Below are positions 1-6,229 of a DNA stretch of 6,229 nucleotides, in pieces. This stretch comes from a virus. Taxonomy: Duplodnaviria; Heunggongvirae; Uroviricota; Caudoviricetes. Every line of letters starts with the position of its first letter. Position 1 is the first letter of the stretch. The notes under the pieces were generated by a model. The model made no database searches, was not told the DNA's origin, and saw nothing but the letters and a program-made list of their open reading frames with translations. Position numbers and translations under genes: made by a program. Where the stretch lies: the IMG/VR virus record IMGVR_UViG_2534681999_000014, positions 1 through 6,229 of that record; one strand, given 5' to 3'.

Positions 1-142
1 ATTTTGTGATGCAGTGCCTGGTGCCTCCAGGTGACGTTAACCAGTTAACAATTAACGCCGGATACAGAGAATCCACCCATAACACTGTTTTTGGTTTTAA
101 CTGTTCCGCGTGCGCTTAGCCGCATTCACCGCATCACAAAAT
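1..142. repeat. Perfect 12-bp inverted repeat pair, ATTTTGTGATGC (1-12) and GCATCACAAAAT (131-142), flanking about 118 bp
   Basis: Seen directly: 131-142 is the exact reverse complement of 1-12. The left arm touches the window edge, so it may extend beyond the window. Function unknown. Confidence 0.5.
36..57. repeat. Three GTTAAC-core palindromic motifs at 8-bp spacing (GTTAAC 36-41, GTTAAC 44-49, TTAACG 53-57)
   Basis: Seen directly in ACGTTAACCAGTTAACAATTAACGCC. Regular spacing of a self-complementary hexamer suggests a protein-binding array; this is inference only. Confidence 0.35.
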
Positions 143-232
143 TCACTTTAAAAAGGGCGGCAGAGCAGTCACGGAGTAAAACTGATACCGCCAAATGTCA
201 CCAGAAAATTGATAACAGAGGGCGTTGTAGCG

Positions 233-269
233 GGGTTGTCACTTAAGCGTATGGTCAACCTGACAACCC
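233..269. other. Hairpin: 9-bp perfect inverted repeat GGGTTGTCA / TGACAACCC around a 19-nt loop that contains CTTAAG
   Basis: Seen directly: 233-241 and 261-269 are exact reverse complements. Followed by GGTGCATTTTCTGG, which is moderately T-rich. Could be a terminator of an upstream plus-strand gene or a regulatory structure; not resolved. Confidence 0.3.
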
Positions 270-461
270 GGTGCATTTTCTGGAGCAATGGAGGAAACCC
301 CAGCCATACTTACCGCCGCGCCATTTCGCGGACTGCCACAACCGGAAGCGCACGGTCGACGAAAATTTAACGATAGGCTATCTATGAACCAGCAACCTCG
401 CCGTGTGCTTTCGTGTTGTGTGCCTGCTTTTTACCACGTCAGGCGAGGTGGTCCCCGTTAT

Positions 462-507
462 TCCCCAACAACAAGGATCTTGTTAATCTGGATATCCCCA
501 ACAACAA
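462..507 (+). repeat. 13-bp direct repeat TCCCCAACAACAA x2 (462-474 and 495-507) upstream of the 546-1037 gene; a small palindrome AACAAG-gat-CTTGTT (470-484) with a GATC site lies between the copies
   Basis: Seen directly. Position about 40-85 bp upstream of the probable ATG at 546 suggests promoter or leader regulatory sites; inference. Confidence 0.35.
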
Positions 508-545
508 TAAGAGTATTGAATGTGATCGCTGAATTAACGGCAGCA

Positions 546-1037
546 ATGACGGCTATTCGTGAAACCGCCCAGATTGCAAAACTAATGAACGAGGCAAAAA
601 CTCAAGCTGAAGTAAATGCGGCTATTGGTGAACTGAACTCAAAGCTTGCATCTATTCAGCGCGAATGCGTGTCTCTCGTTGAGCTGGTGGGCACTTATCA
701 AGAAATAAATGCTTCTCTCAAAGCTAAAATTGCAGAATTTGAAAACTTTGAGGCTCAGACGGAAGGTTATATCCTTAGCCAACTTGAGTCGGGAACTTTT
801 GTGTACTCGAAGGAGGTAACCGTGAACGGCGGCAGCATAATCATGCATCTTTGTCCAAAATGTTTTGGACAAAAGATAGTATCGATACTTCAGCCATTCC
901 CGGTTAGAGAATATGAATTTTTTCATAAAAGCAGGTGCCTGTACTGTGAAGATCAGTTTCTTATGAATAAAAATCCGGATTACGTATCACCTCCATCTAT
1001 TGAAGAGTTGGCCAGAAAACTGAACGGCAATCTGTAG
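546..1037 (+). CDS. Hypothetical protein, 163 aa: N-terminal predicted coiled-coil, C-terminal CxxC-X24-CxxC zinc-ribbon-like motif; AT-rich cargo gene convergent with the leftward prophage genes
   Basis: Part of the 288-1037 ORF in the track. The first 86 codons (288-545) are R/P-rich, more GC-rich and not protein-like, so the start is placed at ATG 546 (MTAIRETAQIAKLMNEAK...). In-frame TTG 520 and GTG 526 are alternatives; the SD is weak in all cases. Cys motifs CPKC and CLYC seen in the translation. The body of the gene is visibly more AT-rich than neighbouring genes. No family recognised from memory. Confidence 0.5.
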   Translation: MTAIRETAQIAKLMNEAKTQAEVNAAIGELNSKLASIQRECVSLVELVGTYQEINASLKAKIAEFENFEAQTEGYILSQLESGTFVYSKEVTVNGGSIIMHLCPKCFGQKIVSILQPFPVREYEFFHKSRCLYCEDQFLMNKNPDYVSPPSIEELARKLNGNL

Positions 1038-1151
1038 ATTTTTACTGTTATGGATATCCAGATTGTTAAAGAGCATGCCGGATGCTTGCTTGTGTCCGGC
1101 GCGTGTGCACCACTCTCCCCCCGTGGAGGATTCCTTAATTACCAGATTTCA

Positions 1152-1304
1152 TTAGTCAGAGTTTCTTGCTAACCAGCGACGCGCGCCAGATTCGGTTTTA
1201 AACGTTTTGCTTTTGGTATACGTCATCGCGGTGAACGTGCCGTCCTGGTTGGGAAACACGCCGTACACCAGAGATTCGTTGTTGCCAAGATCGATAGTAT
1301 CCAT
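1152..1304 (-). CDS. Small prophage protein, 50 aa, DUF1391 family (YdaF/YdfA-like)
   Basis: The track ORF 1152-1343 begins with TTG; the internal ATG at 1304 is preceded by GAGG with a 6-nt spacer (GGGAAATGAGGTCAACATG on the minus strand), so the start is placed at 1304. Translation MDTIDLGNNESLVYGVFPNQDGTFTAMTYTKSKTFKTESGARRWLARNSD matches my memory of the small Rac/Qin prophage proteins YdaF/YdfA. Stop TAA at 1154-1152. Confidence 0.6.
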   Translation of the reverse strand: MDTIDLGNNESLVYGVFPNQDGTFTAMTYTKSKTFKTESGARRWLARNSD

Positions 1305-1490
1305 GTTGACCTCATTTCCCCTTAACGCCGGGTAGCGGAACAAAAACCTGCTGCATCGTTATTAAAGTTGAACCCTGCCGTCATGTTCATACGCCTCGGG
1401 CTGGCTACTTACCCCCTGACCACTGCTTGGTAACTCGAAGTATTGCCCGGCGTTCTGTGGGGCGGGGTGGGTGGTTGGTGTATGTAATCT

Positions 1491-1530
1491 ACAATAAAAA
1501 ACTGTTTTTGTGTCAACAGTTTTTAATTGT
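1491..1530. promoter_or_regulatory. OL-like operator: two 15-bp ACA-N9-TGT sites (ACAATAAAAAACTGT 1491-1505; ACAGTTTTTAATTGT 1516-1530) with a TTGACA -35-like hexamer on the minus strand in the spacer (plus coordinates 1511-1516)
   Basis: Seen directly: the first site is identical to the site at 2526-2540 and the second differs by 1 nt from 2550-2564. The location leftward of the repressor operon and upstream of the leftward DUF1391 gene matches the lambda OL/pL position. Confidence 0.6.
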
Positions 1531-1540
1531 TGTTTTGGGC

Positions 1541-1563
1541 AAAAAAATCCCTCGAAAGAGGGA
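1541..1563 (-). terminator. Rho-independent terminator for the minus-strand repressor-antitoxin-toxin operon
   Basis: Minus strand reads TCCCTC-TTTC-GAGGGA followed by TTTTTTT: a perfect 6-bp stem (1548-1553 / 1558-1563) with a 4-nt loop and a 7-U tract (1541-1547), starting 18 nt after the ParE stop codon (1584-1582). Confidence 0.55.
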
Positions 1564-1581
1564 GTATGAAAATTGTTCAAC

Positions 1582-1869
1582 TCAGATAGAGAAGGGAAAT
1601 TGTCGCCGAGAATGTGTCACGCTTACAATCTCAATGCTTGAAGCAGCTACTCTGTACAGGATTATGTAGTTAGGGTGGGTCACGATCTCTCTCAATCCAG
1701 AAACCCGTTCGCTTGGTGGATATAAGTACGGATGCTCAGATAGAGGTAATACCGATGTTTCAATGCGTATTTTTAGTCTACGTGCTGCCGGTGGGTTCTC
1801 CTTGGCGATGTAAGTTATGATCTGGCGCAAATCATCGCGAGCAGACGGTAGCCATAAAATGGGTAACAT
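1582..1869 (-). CDS. parE2: Type II toxin, ParE/RelE superfamily (ParE2-like)
   Basis: 95-aa ORF MLPILWLPSARDDLRQIITYIAKENPPAARRL...YIILYRVAASSIEIVSVTHSRRQ shows the ParE pattern (L.W.P.A..DL..I..YI...NP.AA; Y.I.YRV....IEI..V.H..R). Its ATG (1869-1867) overlaps the upstream antitoxin TAA (1871-1869) by 1 nt, the classic translationally coupled antitoxin-toxin order. The gene symbol is from memory of the E. coli O157 paaR2-paaA2-parE2 system and was not verified by search. Confidence 0.85.
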   Translation of the reverse strand: MLPILWLPSARDDLRQIITYIAKENPPAARRLKIRIETSVLPLSEHPYLYPPSERVSGLREIVTHPNYIILYRVAASSIEIVSVTHSRRQFPFSI

Positions 1870-2060
1870 TACTCGCTCTTGTTAGTTACAGCAATTTGAG
1901 CAATAAGATTTTCCATTTCAGCCATTACCTCGTCATGTGGAATTGCGGGGCGAGTGTCTGCAAGGCTTGACGTTACTTTAGTGCGCAACCATTCGTTGTA
2001 ACTGTTTTCTTGTTCGGTAGTTTCGAATTCTGAAACTATCGGAGAAAGGGCTGTACCCAT
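1869..2060 (-). CDS. paaA2: Antitoxin of the ParE toxin, 63 aa, PaaA2-like
   Basis: ORF MGTALSPIVSEFETTEQENSYNEWLRTKVTSSLADTRPAIPHDEVMAEMENLIAQIAVTNKSE lies immediately upstream of and overlaps the ParE gene. SD AGGAG sits 7 nt upstream of the ATG (2060-2058). Size and the motifs SPxVSEFET...ENSYNEWLR.KV..SLAD.RPAIPHDEV match what I recall of PaaA2; recalled, not searched. Confidence 0.75.
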   Translation of the reverse strand: MGTALSPIVSEFETTEQENSYNEWLRTKVTSSLADTRPAIPHDEVMAEMENLIAQIAVTNKSE

Positions 2061-2087
2061 GGCATAACTCCTCTTCTTGTACTGTGG

Positions 2088-2489
2088 TCACGCCCGGCGG
2101 CTTTTTTGTGCCGCCAGCCACCTAGCAATGGTTTCTTCCATTGATTTTTTCTTGTCTTTGATTTCTTGAAGCATTTTTTCTTGGTCTTCCTCAGGAAACG
2201 CACTAAAAGCTTGGAGCAGTTCGCGTTGGCGAGGACCAATTTTCATCGTGTCAGGGGTGAAAATTTGCTCACACTCTTCAGGAGGCAATAAAAACCAATG
2301 CAATGGATGCCCTGAAACCTCAACCAGTTTATCCAAACTTGAGGCTTTAGGTGTAGCCTTACCGCTGACCCATTGTTGAACAGTTTGTTGTGTCACACCA
2401 ATTCTACGGGCAAGCTCAGCCTGGCTCCATCCAGTTTCCTGAAGAAGCTTGCTGATTCTGTACATAGATACTTCTAGGGCGCTCATCAT
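2088..2489 (-). CDS. paaR2: HTH XRE-family transcriptional repressor: CI-like lysogeny repressor (RacR/DicA-like architecture) and probable third component (PaaR2-like) of the toxin-antitoxin operon
   Basis: 133-aa ORF with an N-terminal helix-turn-helix (SQAELARRIGVTQQTVQQWVSG) and a C-terminal region (ELLQAFSAFPEEDQEKMLQEIKDK) resembling the DicA-type C-terminus. Divergent from the Cro-like gene across a multi-site operator; 27 nt upstream of the antitoxin on the same strand. No SD upstream of ATG 2489, so the mRNA may be leaderless; an alternative start is M9 at 2465. Confidence 0.8.
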   Translation of the reverse strand: MMSALEVSMYRISKLLQETGWSQAELARRIGVTQQTVQQWVSGKATPKASSLDKLVEVSGHPLHWFLLPPEECEQIFTPDTMKIGPRQRELLQAFSAFPEEDQEKMLQEIKDKKKSMEETIARWLAAQKSRRA

Positions 2490-2500
2490 TATTCAATTTT

Positions 2501-2564
2501 ACAGGTAAATACTGTTAAAAGCATCACAATAAAAAACTGTTGATTGCATACAGTTTTTTATTGT
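2501..2564. promoter_or_regulatory. OR-like tripartite operator: 15-bp ACA-N9-TGT sites at 2501-2515 (ACAGGTAAATACTGT, weakest), 2526-2540 (ACAATAAAAAACTGT) and 2550-2564 (ACAGTTTTTTATTGT), centres 24-25 bp apart; divergent promoters embedded
   Basis: Seen directly: 2526-2540 and 2550-2564 are perfect reverse complements of each other. A -35-like TTGATT (2540-2545) lies in the spacer between them on the plus strand, and TATAGT (2575-2580) is a strong -10 candidate upstream of the ydaS-like SD GAGGAGG (2587-2593). On the minus strand, TAAAAT (plus 2496-2501) lies 6 nt from the repressor ATG. Confidence 0.65.
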
Positions 2565-2597
2565 AGGCTTTGCTTATAGTTTTTAGAGGAGGGCAAA

Positions 2598-2870
2598 ATG
2601 CTAGATAGCACTCGCGAAAAAATTAGGCAGAAATACACTCAGGCTGAAATAGGTCGTTATATGGGGGTCGCTCAACAGACTGTTTGGCAATGGTTTAGCT
2701 TTGGCGTTCCCCCAAAGCAGGTAATTCCGTTATGCCAACTAATGAAGTGGGAAGTTACCCCGCATGAAATCCGCCCAGATATTTATCCTAACCCAACCGA
2801 CGGTTTACCTGTTGGATGTAAGGTTAACACATCAAATGCGCCGGAGTTGATTCATGAAAATCAAGCATGA
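2598..2870 (+). CDS. ydaS: Cro-like small DNA-binding protein, YdaS family
   Basis: 90-aa ORF with strong SD GAGGAGG 4 nt upstream. HTH region AEIGRYMGVAQQTVWQWF followed by VIPLCQLMKWEVTPHEIRPDIYP resembles E. coli Rac YdaS as I recall it (…PAIERATRGEVLCEELRPDIDW). Divergent from the repressor. Confidence 0.75.
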   Translation: MLDSTREKIRQKYTQAEIGRYMGVAQQTVWQWFSFGVPPKQVIPLCQLMKWEVTPHEIRPDIYPNPTDGLPVGCKVNTSNAPELIHENQA

Positions 2871-3279
2871 ACACATCCGCATGGCGATGAATGCCTGGGC
2901 GCATCCGGACGGCGAAAAAGTACCGGCTGCGAAAATTACCAAAGCGTATTTCGAGCTGGGAATGACGTTCCCGGAACTGTATGACGACAGCCATCCGGAA
3001 GCCATGGCTCGCAATACTCAGAAAATTTTCCGCTGGGTGGAGAAAGACACTCCTGATGCGGTTAAAAAAATTCAGGCGTTGTTACCAGCGATCGAAAAAG
3101 CGATGCCGCCTCCGCTGGTGGCCCGAATGCGCAGCCACAGTTCCGCTTATTTTCGGGAGTTGGTAGAGACGAAGGAACGGCTGGTGAAAGATATTGATGA
3201 TTTCGTTGCATCAGCGATCGTTCTGTTCGATCAGATGAATCGTGGTGGCCCGGCAGGAAACACTCTGGCTGTGCATTAA
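2854..3279 (+). CDS. ydaT: YdaT-family protein (CII-like functional analog)
   Basis: 141-aa ORF starting MKIKHEHI and ending ...VH, with a central KIQALLPAI segment; these match the start, end and central motif of E. coli YdaT as I recall it. SD GGAG 7 nt upstream of the ATG. The start overlaps the ydaS-like 3' end by 17 nt. Confidence 0.75.
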   Translation: MKIKHEHIRMAMNAWAHPDGEKVPAAKITKAYFELGMTFPELYDDSHPEAMARNTQKIFRWVEKDTPDAVKKIQALLPAIEKAMPPPLVARMRSHSSAYFRELVETKERLVKDIDDFVASAIVLFDQMNRGGPAGNTLAVH

Positions 3280-3292
3280 TTGGGTAATAAAT

Positions 3293-3802
3293 ATGAGTAA
3301 TGACAAAAAATTGACACTGAGCGTTTACGAAAACAGTCCGCACATCTGGCGTGGCGGTTTATCTGATGTGGAGCTGGCAGAGTGGTTGATACATAAAGCT
3401 AATGCGCTGCTCTGGCGTTTGTCAGCCAGAGAACAGCGCAAGGAAACCAGAATAAAGCTGGCTGATGCAGAAGCGTGTGCCGGGCTTATTGAGGATTATA
3501 CAAATCTTGGTATTTCTTCAGCAGAGAGTGATCCCATTCAGCCTCTGAGCAGGGAGTCAATCCAGCACGCTGGTTGTATGGCACATCTTGTAACTGCTCG
3601 TCAACATGAGGTGGGTATTGGATCACTTCCGGCGGGATATTCGCTGATTCCAGAGCTGGTTGAAGCAAGAAAATCAGTTCAGAAAAAGAGAGATGACGCA
3701 CTTCAATTATTGAGAGAGCACTATGGCGCGATACCAGAATGCGAACAGCGTCGATACCCTGAAGGTTATGAATGGATGCAGTCTCTTTTTGAAGTTCGCT
3801 AA
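3293..3802 (+). CDS. Hypothetical protein, 169 aa, unknown function, inserted between the ydaT-like and replication genes
   Basis: Track ORF 3242-3802. The first ATG is at 3293 (MSNDKKLTLSVYENSPHIWRGG...), 14 nt after the ydaT-like stop; the region 3242-3292 overlaps the ydaT-like 3' end in another frame. Same orientation as the early-right operon. SD weak. No family recognised. Confidence 0.5.
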   Translation: MSNDKKLTLSVYENSPHIWRGGLSDVELAEWLIHKANALLWRLSAREQRKETRIKLADAEACAGLIEDYTNLGISSAESDPIQPLSRESIQHAGCMAHLVTARQHEVGIGSLPAGYSLIPELVEARKSVQKKRDDALQLLREHYGAIPECEQRRYPEGYEWMQSLFEVR

Positions 3803-4019
3803 TCAATATGTCGAGACGAAGGTATGTTTCGGCGCGCAGCCAGGCTCTGTAATCCGGGAGCATTTCGGGGCTGTTACACCAGCGGTTTGTTGCTGCAACA
3901 TTTAATACATGAGCCTGATAAAGGCTTTTCAAAAAATACATGTCGAACCTCCTCTGGTTCTGTCGATTGGGAACCACAGATTATATCCGGAGGAAGGTTC
4001 GGCACCAGATGAGGTAGCC

Positions 4020-5111
4020 ATGCGTGATTACGCAAAAGTTTCTCCGCGATTCTGGCTGGGAGAAACGGGGAGAGAACTTAGAAAGGCGGGTGCAGAAGCG
4101 CAAGTTGTTGCTTTTTACCTGATGACATCCCCTCACGCAAATATGCTGGGTTTGTATTACCTGCCAGTTTTATACCTTGCTCATGAAACCGGGCTTGGTC
4201 TGGAAGGGGCTTCAAAGGGGCTTAAAAGGGCTGTTGAAGCTGGTTTTTGTAGCTATGACCATGATGCAGAGATGGTCTGGGTCCATGAAATGGCAGCCTG
4301 GCAGGTTGGGGAAACGTTGAAGCCTGGCGATAACCGTTGTGCAGGTGTCAGGAATGAGTATGCATCATTACCTGAAAACGCTTTTCTGTCAGTGTTTTAC
4401 GACAGATATAAAACGGATTTCCATCTGGATGTGAGGCGGAATAATAGCCGAAATTCGGTAAGGGGCTTCGAAGGGGCTTTTAAGGGGCTTCGAAGCCAAG
4501 AACAGGAACAGGAGCAGGAGAAAGAACAGGAACAGGACAAAAACACTATGGTTCATGGCAAAAAAAACACCACGAACCAGGCAGGGGATGTTCAGACCGT
4601 CAATCCTGGTCAGCCAGCAGGCACGACACCGGAAGCCGATTCGGGCGCTGTGCAGCAGGTGATGACCGCAGGGTCGGAGCAATCACACCAACTGCAGCAG
4701 CCTGAAGCCGATTCCGCCATTCAGCGGGAAGCCGATCGGGTAGTCCCGGAAAGCACCGGGCAGTCTGTGGGACGAGTGGATTATCCGGATGTGTTCGAAC
4801 AGGTCTGGCGGGAATACCCGTTGCGTGCTGGGGCAAACCCGAAGAAATCCGCTTTCAGTGCCTGGAAGGCCAGATTGCGCGAGGGGGTGCCACCAGAGAC
4901 CATGCTGGATGGTGTGAGGCGTTACGCGAGATACCTGGCGGCGACCGGGAAAGCGGGAACGGAATTTGTTCAGCGAGCGACGACGTTTTTTGGGCCGGAC
5001 CGGAATTTTGAAAACCCCTGGTTGCTCCCGGTAAGCGGCACGAACAACCAGCGTTGTGTGAATCATATTTCTGAACCGGATACCGAAATTCCGCCGGGAT
5101 TCAGGGGGTGA
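4020..5111 (+). CDS. Phage replication initiation protein (lambda O-like / YdaU-position), with an internal Gln/Glu-rich linker and a conserved phage C-terminal domain
   Basis: Track ORF 3909-5111. The ATG at 4020 has SD GAGG 5 nt upstream, while ATG 3909 has none, so the start is placed at 4020 (MRDYAKVSPRFWLGETGRELRKAG...). The C-terminal segment DVFEQVWREYPLRAGANPKKSAFSAWKARL...ATTFFGPDRNFENPW resembles the conserved C-terminal domain of phage replication proteins (from memory). Position immediately upstream of the DnaC-like gene. Contains DNA iterons (see repeat features). Confidence 0.7.
   Translation: MRDYAKVSPRFWLGETGRELRKAGAEAQVVAFYLMTSPHANMLGLYYLPVLYLAHETGLGLEGASKGLKRAVEAGFCSYDHDAEMVWVHEMAAWQVGETLKPGDNRCAGVRNEYASLPENAFLSVFYDRYKTDFHLDVRRNNSRNSVRGFEGAFKGLRSQEQEQEQEKEQEQDKNTMVHGKKNTTNQAGDVQTVNPGQPAGTTPEADSGAVQQVMTAGSEQSHQLQQPEADSAIQREADRVVPESTGQSVGRVDYPDVFEQVWREYPLRAGANPKKSAFSAWKARLREGVPPETMLDGVRRYARYLAATGKAGTEFVQRATTFFGPDRNFENPWLLPVSGTNNQRCVNHISEPDTEIPPGFRG
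4204..4233. repeat. Iteron cluster A: AAGGGGCTT at 4204-4212 and 4215-4223 plus a degenerate copy (AAAGGGCTG, 4225-4233), 11-bp period
   Basis: Seen directly in GAAGGGGCTTCAAAGGGGCTTAAAAGGGCTG. Copies are read in three different reading frames (EGA / KGL / KRA), arguing for DNA-level rather than protein-level selection. Confidence 0.45.
4460..4490. repeat. Iteron cluster B: three perfect AAGGGGCTT copies at 4460-4468, 4471-4479 and 4482-4490 (exact 11-bp period), with palindromic CTTCGAAG cores; candidate replication origin inside the initiator gene
   Basis: Seen directly in TAAGGGGCTTCGAAGGGGCTTTTAAGGGGCTTCGAAGCC. The three copies are translated in three frames (RGF / EGA / KGL). Immediately followed by the linker-coding repeat and an A-rich stretch (4539-4570). 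Lambda ori is likewise a set of iterons inside the O gene. Confidence 0.5.
4500..4541 (+). repeat. In-frame hexamer array (GARCAG)n encoding the QEQEQEQEKEQEQD low-complexity linker
   Basis: Seen directly: GAACAG x2, GAGCAG, GAGAAA, GAACAG x2, GACAAA. The period is a multiple of 3 and is read in one frame, so this is a protein-level flexible acidic linker between the N- and C-terminal domains. Confidence 0.6.
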
Positions 5112-5117
5112 TGTGGC

Positions 5118-5864
5118 ATGAAAAACATTGCGGCAGCCGGGGTTCTTGAACGTATTCGCAGACTTGCACCACAGGCGTCGGTTCCACCGTACCGGACGGT
5201 GGAGGAGTGGCGGGAATGGCAACTTGCTGAAGGACGAAAACGCAGCGAGGAGATTAACCGCCAGAATCACCAGTTGCGGGTGGAAAAAATCCTGAATCGT
5301 TCGGGCATCCAGCCTCTGCACAGCAAATGCTCGTTTGCGAATTATCAGGTGCAGAACGACGGGCAAAAATACGCGCTGAGCCAGGCCAAATCCATAGCTG
5401 ACGAACTGATGACCGGGTGCACGAATTTTGTGTTCAGCGGTAAAACCGGCACCGGGAAAAATCACCTTGCAGCGGCGATGGGTAACCGGCTGATGGCGAA
5501 GGGGCGCAGCGTGATTATCGTCACCGTGTCTGATGTCATGAGCGTGTTGCATGACAGCTACGACAACGGCAAATCCGGGGAAAAATTTTTACAGGAGCTT
5601 TGCAGTGTTGATTTGCTGGTCCTGGATGAAATAGGCGTTCAGCGGGAGACGAAAAACGAGCAGGTGGTATTACACCAGATAATTGATCGCCGGACAGCAT
5701 CACTGTGCAGTGTCGGGATGTTAACAAACCTGAATCATGCCGCAATGAGTACACTTCTTGGTGAGAGGATTATGGACCGCATGACCATGAACGGTGGTCG
5801 ATGGGTGACGTTTAACTGGGATAGCTGGCGTCCAAATGTCAGCAATATGAGGGTTGTGAAGTAA
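5118..5864 (+). CDS. DnaC-like helicase loader, AAA+ ATPase of the DnaC/IstB family (lambda P functional analog, YdaV-position)
   Basis: 248-aa ORF with Walker A FSGKTGTGKNHLAAAMG and Walker B DLLVLDEIG. Start ATG 5118 follows the initiator stop (5109-5111) by 6 nt, with a G-rich SD (5103-5108). Confidence 0.9.
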   Translation: MKNIAAAGVLERIRRLAPQASVPPYRTVEEWREWQLAEGRKRSEEINRQNHQLRVEKILNRSGIQPLHSKCSFANYQVQNDGQKYALSQAKSIADELMTGCTNFVFSGKTGTGKNHLAAAMGNRLMAKGRSVIIVTVSDVMSVLHDSYDNGKSGEKFLQELCSVDLLVLDEIGVQRETKNEQVVLHQIIDRRTASLCSVGMLTNLNHAAMSTLLGERIMDRMTMNGGRWVTFNWDSWRPNVSNMRVVK

Positions 5865-5885
5865 TTTTGTCCGGAGGAAATTTTA

Positions 5886-6229
5886 ATGGAAACCGTATCT
5901 GACGCACTGAAAGCACTGAAAAAAGCCTCTTCACATGTGGTGGCAGCTCGCCTTGGAATCAGTCGTGAAGAGGCTGTCAACGAGCTGTGGGAACTCAAAA
6001 TAAATGGCGTCGTTGATAAAACTGGTCACACCTGGTTTCTGGCTGGCGAAGGTGAATCCCGGGTAACCGAAGAGCGGCCAGTAAAATCTGAAGCACAGGA
6101 TATGCTGACCGGGGAGGTCGAACAAAAAGTTACCGCAGACATGATGATTGAGTTTATCGGTCAGGATGGGGCTAAAACGTGTGAGGAACTGGCGGGTAAG
6201 TTCGGTGTCAGTACTCGCAAGGTTGCTTC
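5886..6229 (+). CDS. Partial CDS (5' end, runs off the window): hypothetical prophage protein with an N-terminal winged-helix-like segment, possibly YdaW/DUF1627-like
   Basis: Not in the supplied track because it has no stop inside the window. I translated it by hand from ATG 5886 (METVSDALKALKKASSHVVAARLGISREEAVNELWELKINGVVDKTGHTWFLAGEGE...) and found no stop codon through 6229. SD GGAGG (5873-5877) 8 nt upstream. Family assignment is a weak recollection. Confidence 0.6.
   Translation, partial: METVSDALKALKKASSHVVAARLGISREEAVNELWELKINGVVDKTGHTWFLAGEGESRVTEERPVKSEAQDMLTGEVEQKVTADMMIEFIGQDGAKTCEELAGKFGVSTRKVA

Follow-up and report, generated by a model that had tools for sequence, protein, structure and literature searches.

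A long inverted repeat in the dicF-dicB spacer of a lambdoid prophage closes a conserved, pseudoknotted RNA domain and is probably the RNase III processing stem downstream of DicF

The DicF/dicB and KilS/kilR pairs are textbook prophage-encoded cell-division inhibitors of E. coli K-12 and EHEC. DicF is stated to possess two 3' ends, and the processing, by RNase III, of full-length dicBF transcripts is reported to yield a 72-nt form of this small RNA (PMC5069750 and PMC9438474, both citing Faubladier 1990). A review also counts the dicF-dicB intergenic region among the substrates of RNase III. Furthermore, Table S1 of Gordon 2017 contains an rnc-dependent coverage peak at 1649470 that is assigned to 'dicF-dicB', marked as known and based on 0/0 reads in the wild type versus 26 in the rnc mutant. 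In a study from 2023, RNase III is described only at a different site, upstream of DicF, at the 5' end of a 190-nt species (PMC10448788). Unlike the situation for DicF-dicB, no RNase III processing has been reported in the literature for the leader formed by KilS (b4833, PMC8175672) and kilR in the Rac prophage.

A second group of RNAs that is relevant here comprises STnc100 and its relatives PasD and EcOnc27/sRNA103. These are prophage-encoded sRNAs, members of the family are expressed and Hfq-associated, and published accounts of the family do not give STnc100 a function. The two groups have been studied apart: the KilS paper (PMC8175672) does not mention DicF, and the preprint on Pas and STnc100 mentions neither DicF nor dicB. 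In the Rfam-based annotation of EDL933 none of the 11 STnc100 copies adjoins any of the four copies of DicF.

The DNA analysed in this work is a stretch of 6,229 nucleotides from a virus of the Caudoviricetes (positions 1 to 6,229 of IMG/VR record IMGVR_UViG_2534681999_000014), referred to as the window in the following. Its first 1200 bases are 99.5-99.9% identical to lambdoid prophages of E. coli O157:H7 and O55:H7. According to Pfam, the neighbouring open reading frames encode an HTH repressor, a YdaS/YdaT pair and a DnaC-like replication protein, that is, the usual immunity and early region, and the early-left operon on the minus strand has the order PaaA2/ParE, YdfA (DUF1391), DicF, spacer and dicB. 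DicF is recognized by Rfam family RF00039 with 77 bits (gathering score 48; window 155-206, minus strand). Extension of the sequence through an annotated, near-identical record places the ATG of dicB, likewise on the minus strand, 21 nt to the left of position 1. As DicF lies on one side (Table 1) and dicB starts just beyond the left edge on the other, the repeat region is the transcribed non-coding spacer between dicF and dicB. The preliminary description of this DNA had considered that the repeat might simply fall into an ordinary coding region. The dicB frame is indeed open for 135 nt upstream, but the lengths of the spacer alleles differ by non-multiples of three and the spacer is therefore non-coding; a coding reading is also countered by the exchange of the central part for unrelated sequence among alleles. 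The spacer sequence is present in 4642 of 5426 complete E. coli genomes, with a median of two and up to nine copies per genome, which correspond to separate prophages.

Several further features of the locus were observed. Genes for a PaaA2 antitoxin (1869-2060) and a ParE toxin (1582-1869) reside on the minus strand of the early-left operon between the repressor gene and the YdfA/DUF1391 gene (1152-1343). An open reading frame for 171 amino acids (522-1037, plus strand) without a Pfam match is located antisense to the operon between YdfA and DicF; it is annotated as 'hypothetical protein' in RefSeq and makes the distance from ydfA to dicF longer than in K-12. A perfect 15-bp inverted repeat, ACAATAAAAAACTGT/ACAGTTTTTTATTGT at 2526-2540/2550-2564, sits in the intergenic region between the HTH repressor gene (2088-2489, minus strand) and the gene for the YdaS-like cro analogue (2598-2870, plus strand) and might serve as an operator or as a terminator-like hairpin acting in both directions. 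Two phages assigned to other hosts, Aeromonas phage AP1 (MT713136.1) and Actinobacillus phage vB_Apl-pPE4 (PP818812.1), carry E. coli spacer copies with 100% and 86% identity, respectively, the latter together with kilR. Contamination, chimeric assembly or wrong host assignment is the likely reason.

The repeat that had originally drawn attention to the spacer was described as a perfect inverted repeat of 12 bp. Both arms could be confirmed, with ATTTTGTGATGC at 1-12 being matched by its exact reverse complement at 131-142, and a repeat search of the window extends them to 1-16/127-142 when one mismatch is allowed. Chance is an unlikely origin, as had been argued: when the complete window was shuffled 300 times with its dinucleotides preserved, a perfect inverted repeat with arms of 12 bp or longer and a loop not exceeding 200 nt arose anywhere in only 12 cases. 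The left arm does run past the edge of the window, as suspected, by about 5 nt; records identical to 1-150 continue it to give GAATTTTGTGATGC/GCATCACAAAATTC, 14 bp of perfect repeat. Three enclosed GTTAAC units with a spacing of 8 bp had also been proposed. True GTTAAC is found at 36-41 and 44-49, whereas the third unit is ATTAAC (51-56) and not palindromic, and the spacing is 8 bp for the first interval and 7 bp for the second. A fourth TTAAC at 97-101 was absent from that array. The CCTGG/CCAGG pair exists, not at 18-30 but at 17-21/27-31.

Structure prediction for the minus-strand RNA reveals a fold with a long closing helix, which we term P1. Its arms, GUGAAUUUUGUGAUGCGGUG and CACUGCAUCACAAAAUUCAU, form 21 uninterrupted pairs including one G.U; with a bulge and weak outer pairs included, the helix reaches about 28 bp. 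The 'mismatch' of the DNA repeat is this G.U pair, which exists in the minus-strand RNA only. The spacer RNA has a folding energy of -65.3 to -68.5 kcal/mol (z = -4.7 to -5.1), and three to four internal hairpins are closed by the long helix. The plus strand folds worse (-51.8 kcal/mol), and P1 persists when the 481-nt precursor is folded. We consider it likely that the 14-bp repeat is a feature of the dicBF operon transcript, i.e. of RNA specified by the minus strand of the window. The repeat constitutes the closing helix of a conserved, multi-hairpin, pseudoknotted RNA domain of about 125 nt, the parts of which are listed in Table 1.

Table 1. Positions of DicF and of the elements of the downstream RNA domain in the window
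Feature	Position	Strand	Evidence
DicF sRNA, 53-nt form	155..207	-	Rfam RF00039; MG1655 dicF annotation maps to the same sequence
Continuation of the DicF terminator U-tract	150-154	-	
P1, 5' strand	127..147	-	repeat search, fold, comparison of 272 elements
Junction AAU, invariant, precedes P2	124-126	-	
P2 hairpin, UNNGC pentaloop (here UAAGC), bulged A	107..124	-	covariation
Pseudoknot 5' strand CAGUUAA, directly 3' of P2, pairs with P4 loop	97..103	-	complementarity test
P3, variable central region	60..96	-	allele comparison
P4 hairpin GGCGUUAAUU/GGUUAACGUC, loop GUUAACU	33..59	-	covariation, fold
Pseudoknot 3' strand UUAACUG, in P4 loop	42-48	-	
P5 hairpin CCUGG-AGGCA-CCAGG, adjoins P1 3' strand	17..31	-	covariation
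P1, 3' strand (CACUGCAUCACAAAAU...)	1..16, plus about 5 nt beyond the left edge	-	records extending past the window

For comparative analysis 309 loci were gathered via the DicF core, a shared hairpin motif and a published STnc100 primer; 272 elements were extracted with their flanks and 46 non-redundant representatives formed alignment A1. The search pattern used for collection predetermined part of P5 and the beginning of the P1 3' strand, and with this proviso P1, P2, P4 and P5 are paired in 91.1% of the cells of the 46 representatives compared to 39-45% with slid partners. The covariation score amounts to 0.443 versus 0.06-0.14 for the controls, and none of 500 shuffles reaches the observed values. 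Several pair types occur at P1 positions 3-6, in P2, in P4 and in P5. Within alignment A1, P2 is paired in 99% and shows CG/GC swaps at three pairs, both sides have changed at six of the eight pairs of P4, and a swap from U-A to G-C is seen in P5 in 12 of the 46 sequences, P5 being part of the near-invariant family motif UCACCnGGAGGCACnnGGCAC. P3 is swapped for unrelated alleles of differing length in other prophages. With compensatory changes in every helix, a structured RNA turned out to be the correct choice among the options that had been listed for the repeat, and its interpretation as a recombination site is unsupported.

The GTTAAC-type units find their explanation in this structure. 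The first and the third are the arms of P4, the middle one forms its loop, and the loop sequence UUAACUG is the exact complement of CAGUUAA, which contains the fourth TTAAC. Complementarity is kept with other sequences in relatives, namely AUCAGCA/UGCUGAU, CUGGUG/CACCGG, CCAGUC/GACUGG, UGAUACC/GGUAUCA and ACUGGAUA/UAUCCAGU. A pseudoknot helix score of at least 6 is reached by 87% of the representatives versus 15% of the shuffles, and the mean score is 6.89 compared to 5.13 +/- 0.2 upon re-pairing among sequences, a value that none of 5000 permutations attains (30 distinct sequence pairs). The 'GTTAAC array' is thus explained by a pseudoknot, which does not appear in the structure line of the Rfam STnc100 entry. 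Taken as DNA, four TTAAC units within 65 bp, two of them exact GTTAAC palindromes, are reminiscent of operators, and the units could together with the outer repeat be bound by a phage regulator. We regard such a protein-binding site, which was among the original proposals, as extremely improbable: the units are hairpin arms and a pseudoknot loop, the site is about 2 kb away from the repressor/cro control region, the arms of relatives change and yet stay complementary (GGAUUCAG/CUGAAUUC, GGCGGUAG/CUGCCGUC and others), and the loop unit and the J2/3 segment covary as pseudoknot partners. Complementary changes of the arms together with covariation of the loop are the signature of RNA pairing and not of a DNA recognition sequence. 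We discarded a candidate interaction over a longer distance, in which P2 (109-117) would pair with 346-354 close to the RNase III site upstream of DicF; it comprises only 9 bp, which is chance level, and in the 481-nt fold the upstream site forms its own local hairpin.

Sequence comparison shows that the enclosed 110 nt are a divergent copy of the 5' domain of STnc100. At gathering level, Rfam detects nothing but DicF in the window. In a permissive scan, STnc100 (RF02076) aligns over its full length and with the same consensus architecture, albeit with 29.5 bits (E = 1e-4) against a gathering score of 47. A covariance model, R1, was built from 30 free-standing STnc100-type genes without DicF-, P7- or D6-type sequences. 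It matches the window at 7-136 on the minus strand with 61.5 bits (E = 3.7e-14) over model positions 1-115 of 115, and it also matches the copies in phages P7 and D6, in Klebsiella, next to kilR and in the Qin and Rac prophages of MG1655. On the Rfam STnc100 model, free-standing copies score 73-132 bits and thus above threshold, whereas embedded copies fall below it. STnc100 with its relatives and the dicF-dicB copy have P1, the GGUGAAU junction, P2 with its UNNGC loop, P4, P5 and the motif UCACCnGGAGGCACnnGGCAC in common, the latter having been found as the UCACCnGGAGGCAC motif in the test for the domain.

On the other hand, the two arrangements differ. Free-standing genes have a sigma-70-like promoter that starts transcription at the base of P1, and P1 is followed by a linker and a Rho-independent terminator. 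The dicF-dicB copy lacks an own promoter, linker and terminator and is embedded between the terminator of an sRNA and an open reading frame. A scan of the minus strand upstream of it revealed no promoter-like site, no terminator follows P1, and P1 runs into the ribosome-binding site of dicB. An own promoter inside the DicF terminator was considered on account of a weak resemblance by eye; no candidate passes the promoter scan. P1 itself comprises 21 bp in the dicF-dicB copy compared to 8-10 bp in free-standing STnc100.

BLAST also matched the internal part of the domain to a Klebsiella phage and to two P1-like phages, P7 and D6, in which it lies between tRNA-Ser and terB/tciA. A relation to the c4-like antisense RNA of the P1/P7 immI region was rejected, as the P7 and D6 copies are located between tRNA-Ser and terB/tciA and not in immI and a match to Rfam C4 is missing; neither is the element a tRNA or tRNA-like gene, none being found by ARAGORN in the window or in locus L001. 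Phage D6 contains a second, weaker match to the domain model away from the terB-linked copy (L131 4136-4241, minus strand; 33.2 bits, E ~9e-7). Tandem arrays of STnc100 were seen in locus L139 (2265-3380, four Rfam matches) and also in L132, L134, L147, L158, L199, L214 and L242, and STnc100 genes are located directly downstream of tRNA genes in L132 and L139.

The length of P1 depends on the genetic context. Its family-wide core covers about 127-135 of the 5' strand (GGUG plus 4-5 nt), while the extension at 136-147 is specific for copies that follow a DicF-type terminator. An ungapped run of 21 bp is present in 96 of the 272 elements, all of them located after a DicF-type terminator and before dicB. 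Copies that follow related terminators and precede other genes have helices of 28-29 bp with one or two bulges and different 3' sequences; the downstream genes are kilR (98.6% identical to kilR of Rac-SA53), an Ash/Rha gene or an open reading frame for 94 amino acids. Altogether, a lengthened P1 is found only after DicF- or KilS-type terminators, and free-standing copies mostly have 8-10 bp. In the copies behind such terminators, one P1 pair varies between C-G, U.G and U-A and is C.A once. Double compensations occur twice in locus L182 (U-A to C-G, A-U to G-C) and once in locus L175 (U-A to G-C). An A.C mismatch in the extension, CAAAACUC, is present in nine loci (seven loci with the flank combinations of L036, plus L038 and L085). 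The helix has only 9-10 bp in the embedded copies of P7, D6 and the Klebsiella phage, so a long stem is not required for the domain itself.

These comparisons also bear on the proposal that the repeat marks a mobile or invertible element. A perfect 14-bp inverted repeat around about 115 bp has the size of a MITE, several copies reside in one genome, and a junction at which dicB-type and kilR-type modules have recombined lies just after the 3' arm. However, a target-site duplication is missing, the flanks ...UAAAGU and CAUUGU... containing no direct repeat. All 106 DicF-linked copies occupy one syntenic position and are, like the copies after DicF-like variant terminators, oriented in a single way with respect to the sRNA upstream of them. 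Empty sites were not encountered, and the two truncated copies that were examined are accounted for by an IS1-associated deletion and another deletion. The copies represent separate prophages, the long-helix form always stands between a DicF-/KilS-type terminator and an early-left open reading frame, and Pfam analysis of the open reading frames of the window revealed no recombinase gene nearby. Moreover, base pairing of the RNA is kept despite the variation, and some of the pairs are G.U, which would read A.C on the opposite strand. A miniature transposon, an invertible segment with terminal inverted repeats or a recombination site is therefore a most unlikely interpretation.

In the dicF-dicB copy P1 has properties that are expected of an RNase III substrate. 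The E. coli enzyme requires a double-stranded RNA that runs without interruption for about two turns (roughly 20 bp or more), and P1 provides 21 contiguous pairs including one G.U. In MG1655, dicF is annotated at 1649382-1649434; counting 72 nt from the DicF 5' end leads to 1649453, GAAUUUUGU|GAUG, which corresponds to about position 136 of the window, within the P1 5' arm and near the middle of the 21-bp helix, a position that is derived from the reported lengths of 53 and 72 nt and is accurate to a few nucleotides. Since the RNase III-dependent end as given in these later accounts thus falls inside the 5' arm, the repeat probably corresponds to the RNase III processing stem already known to follow DicF, with the dependence on RNase III being taken from the literature. 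The site attributed to Faubladier, Cam and Bouche 1990 (via PMC5069750 and PMC9438474) agrees in locus, strand and location of the 3' end in the 5' arm, and as far as these accounts convey it, the RNase III role of the repeat is old knowledge from 1990. The enclosed structure is not mentioned in the later papers that were consulted. A helix formed by flanking sequences around a structured RNA and cut by RNase III is also characteristic of long-range stalks such as the pre-rRNA stems and the precursor duplex of CJnc190 (PMC8687705). In contrast to these, the known useful product, DicF, lies outside the dicF-dicB stalk.

The coverage peak at 1649470 (Gordon 2017) maps to P2 inside the enclosed domain and not to the helix, and it is weak evidence for processing because its reads are few (26) and unstranded. 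If anything, they speak against accumulation of the domain RNA in the wild type. The same table contains an rnc-dependent peak for kilR-sieB at 1418510 (0/0 wild-type reads versus 41, not marked as known). We rejected it as support for cleavage of the Rac helix because its position (L314 position 311) is outside the helix, 8 nt upstream of where KilS begins. Upstream of DicF, the 481-nt fold of the minus strand contains a long imperfect local hairpin at about 335-424. This predicted hairpin would be expected to harbour, at about 340-344, the 5' end of the 190-nt DicF species and would add another RNase III site next to DicF, distinct from the one in P1. The 5' seed region of DicF, AUUUUCUGG, is complementary to CCAGAAAAU about 70 nt upstream (201-209 with 275-283); this pairing encloses a 9-bp hairpin (233-241/261-269) and could sequester the seed in the precursor.

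As an overall account, which we hold to be probably correct, read-through would allow the long helix to form, to close the STnc100-type domain and to serve as a substrate for RNase III. Once RNA polymerase has passed the DicF terminator in the direction of dicB, the segment following the terminator U-tract would pair with the segment preceding the dicB ribosome-binding site. The resulting helix would represent the closing stem P1 of the domain and, because it is lengthened to about two helical turns, could at the same time be recognized by RNase III. Cleavage would provide read-through transcripts with the 72-nt DicF 3' end and would separate DicF from the dicB message. By inference, a staggered partner cut, as expected for RNase III with its 2-nt 3' overhangs, would be located in the 3' arm at about position 5/6, the dicB mRNA would be left with a leader of about 25 nt, and the domain would be freed as a separate fragment.

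The long helix might instead act mainly as a structural clamp that insulates folding of the domain within a long mRNA, or as a translational gate in which the outermost pairs, U-tract with UUGAGG, mask the Shine-Dalgarno sequence of dicB; cleavage by RNase III would then be incidental or would only serve unmasking. In agreement with this, the GAGGA Shine-Dalgarno region is the partner of the U-tract in minimum-free-energy folds, the U-tract is paired in the kilR-linked and L182 copies as well, and the extension is confined to embedded domains that have another RNA upstream. Masking is not conserved, however. In copies linked to kilR the partner of the U-tract is AAAAA, located upstream of the Shine-Dalgarno sequence, in L182 the latter is far from the helix, and the outer pairs are mostly G.U. 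As a clamp or gate the helix would also leave the RNase III-dependent 72-nt end, as reported in the accounts cited above, unexplained, and we consider this function unlikely.

What the domain itself does in an operon for division inhibitors can be proposed only tentatively. The dicF-dicB and kilS-kilR spacers may possibly hold a functional STnc100-type module, either as a third RNA of dicBF that is excised by RNase III or as a cis-acting gate that binds a protein or ligand and controls the division inhibitors after terminator read-through. A more specific variant, a riboswitch-like or protein-binding sensor that decides in cis on expression of the division inhibitor after read-through, with P1 as the switching helix, appears rather improbable. 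Its layout is aptamer-like: a multi-helix junction closed by P1 is combined with a variable peripheral stem and a covarying pseudoknot, and the nucleotides of junction and loop are near-invariant. The domain is also situated directly upstream of dicB, kilR, terB/tciA and other early-left open reading frames. Most members of the family are, however, free-standing sRNA genes whose linker and terminator show no evident alternative pairing; neither a ligand nor a binding protein nor an alternative fold was found for the domain, and a P1 of 21 bp is too stable for a switch.

The closest counterpart to the DicF-dicB arrangement is the KilS-kilR leader of the Rac prophage. It has the same composite structure of an sRNA with terminator, AAAGUGAAUUUUGUGAUGCGGUG, the domain (52.8 bits with model R1) and a gene for an FtsZ inhibitor. 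KilS differs from DicF by its own promoter and a different body, and its closing helix contains one or two bulges. In Rac, KilS (L314 206-303; MG1655 1418405-1418502, minus strand) ends with a DicF-like terminator that is followed by the same AAAGUGAAUUUUGUGAUG and the domain. DicF-like sRNAs with different bodies were seen in the same position in several loci among L137, L162, L172, L175 and L182, which suggests a DicF/KilS family of sRNAs with interchangeable seed regions.

Three aspects appear to be undescribed in the literature: the divergent, embedded STnc100-type domain in the dicF-dicB spacer, the covarying pseudoknot of the STnc100 family and the composite layout common to the DicF-dicB and KilS-kilR leaders. 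The pseudoknot adds to the structural model of STnc100 and suggests a specific molecular function, and the embedded copies are missed by Rfam-based annotation. In combination, an STnc100-type domain and an RNase III stem would offer a structural explanation for the long-known 72-nt form of DicF. DicF/KilS and STnc100/PasD/EcOnc27, which have been studied apart, would become parts of one modular system, in which one and the same domain has two uses, either as the 5' end of stand-alone sRNAs or embedded upstream of toxic early genes.
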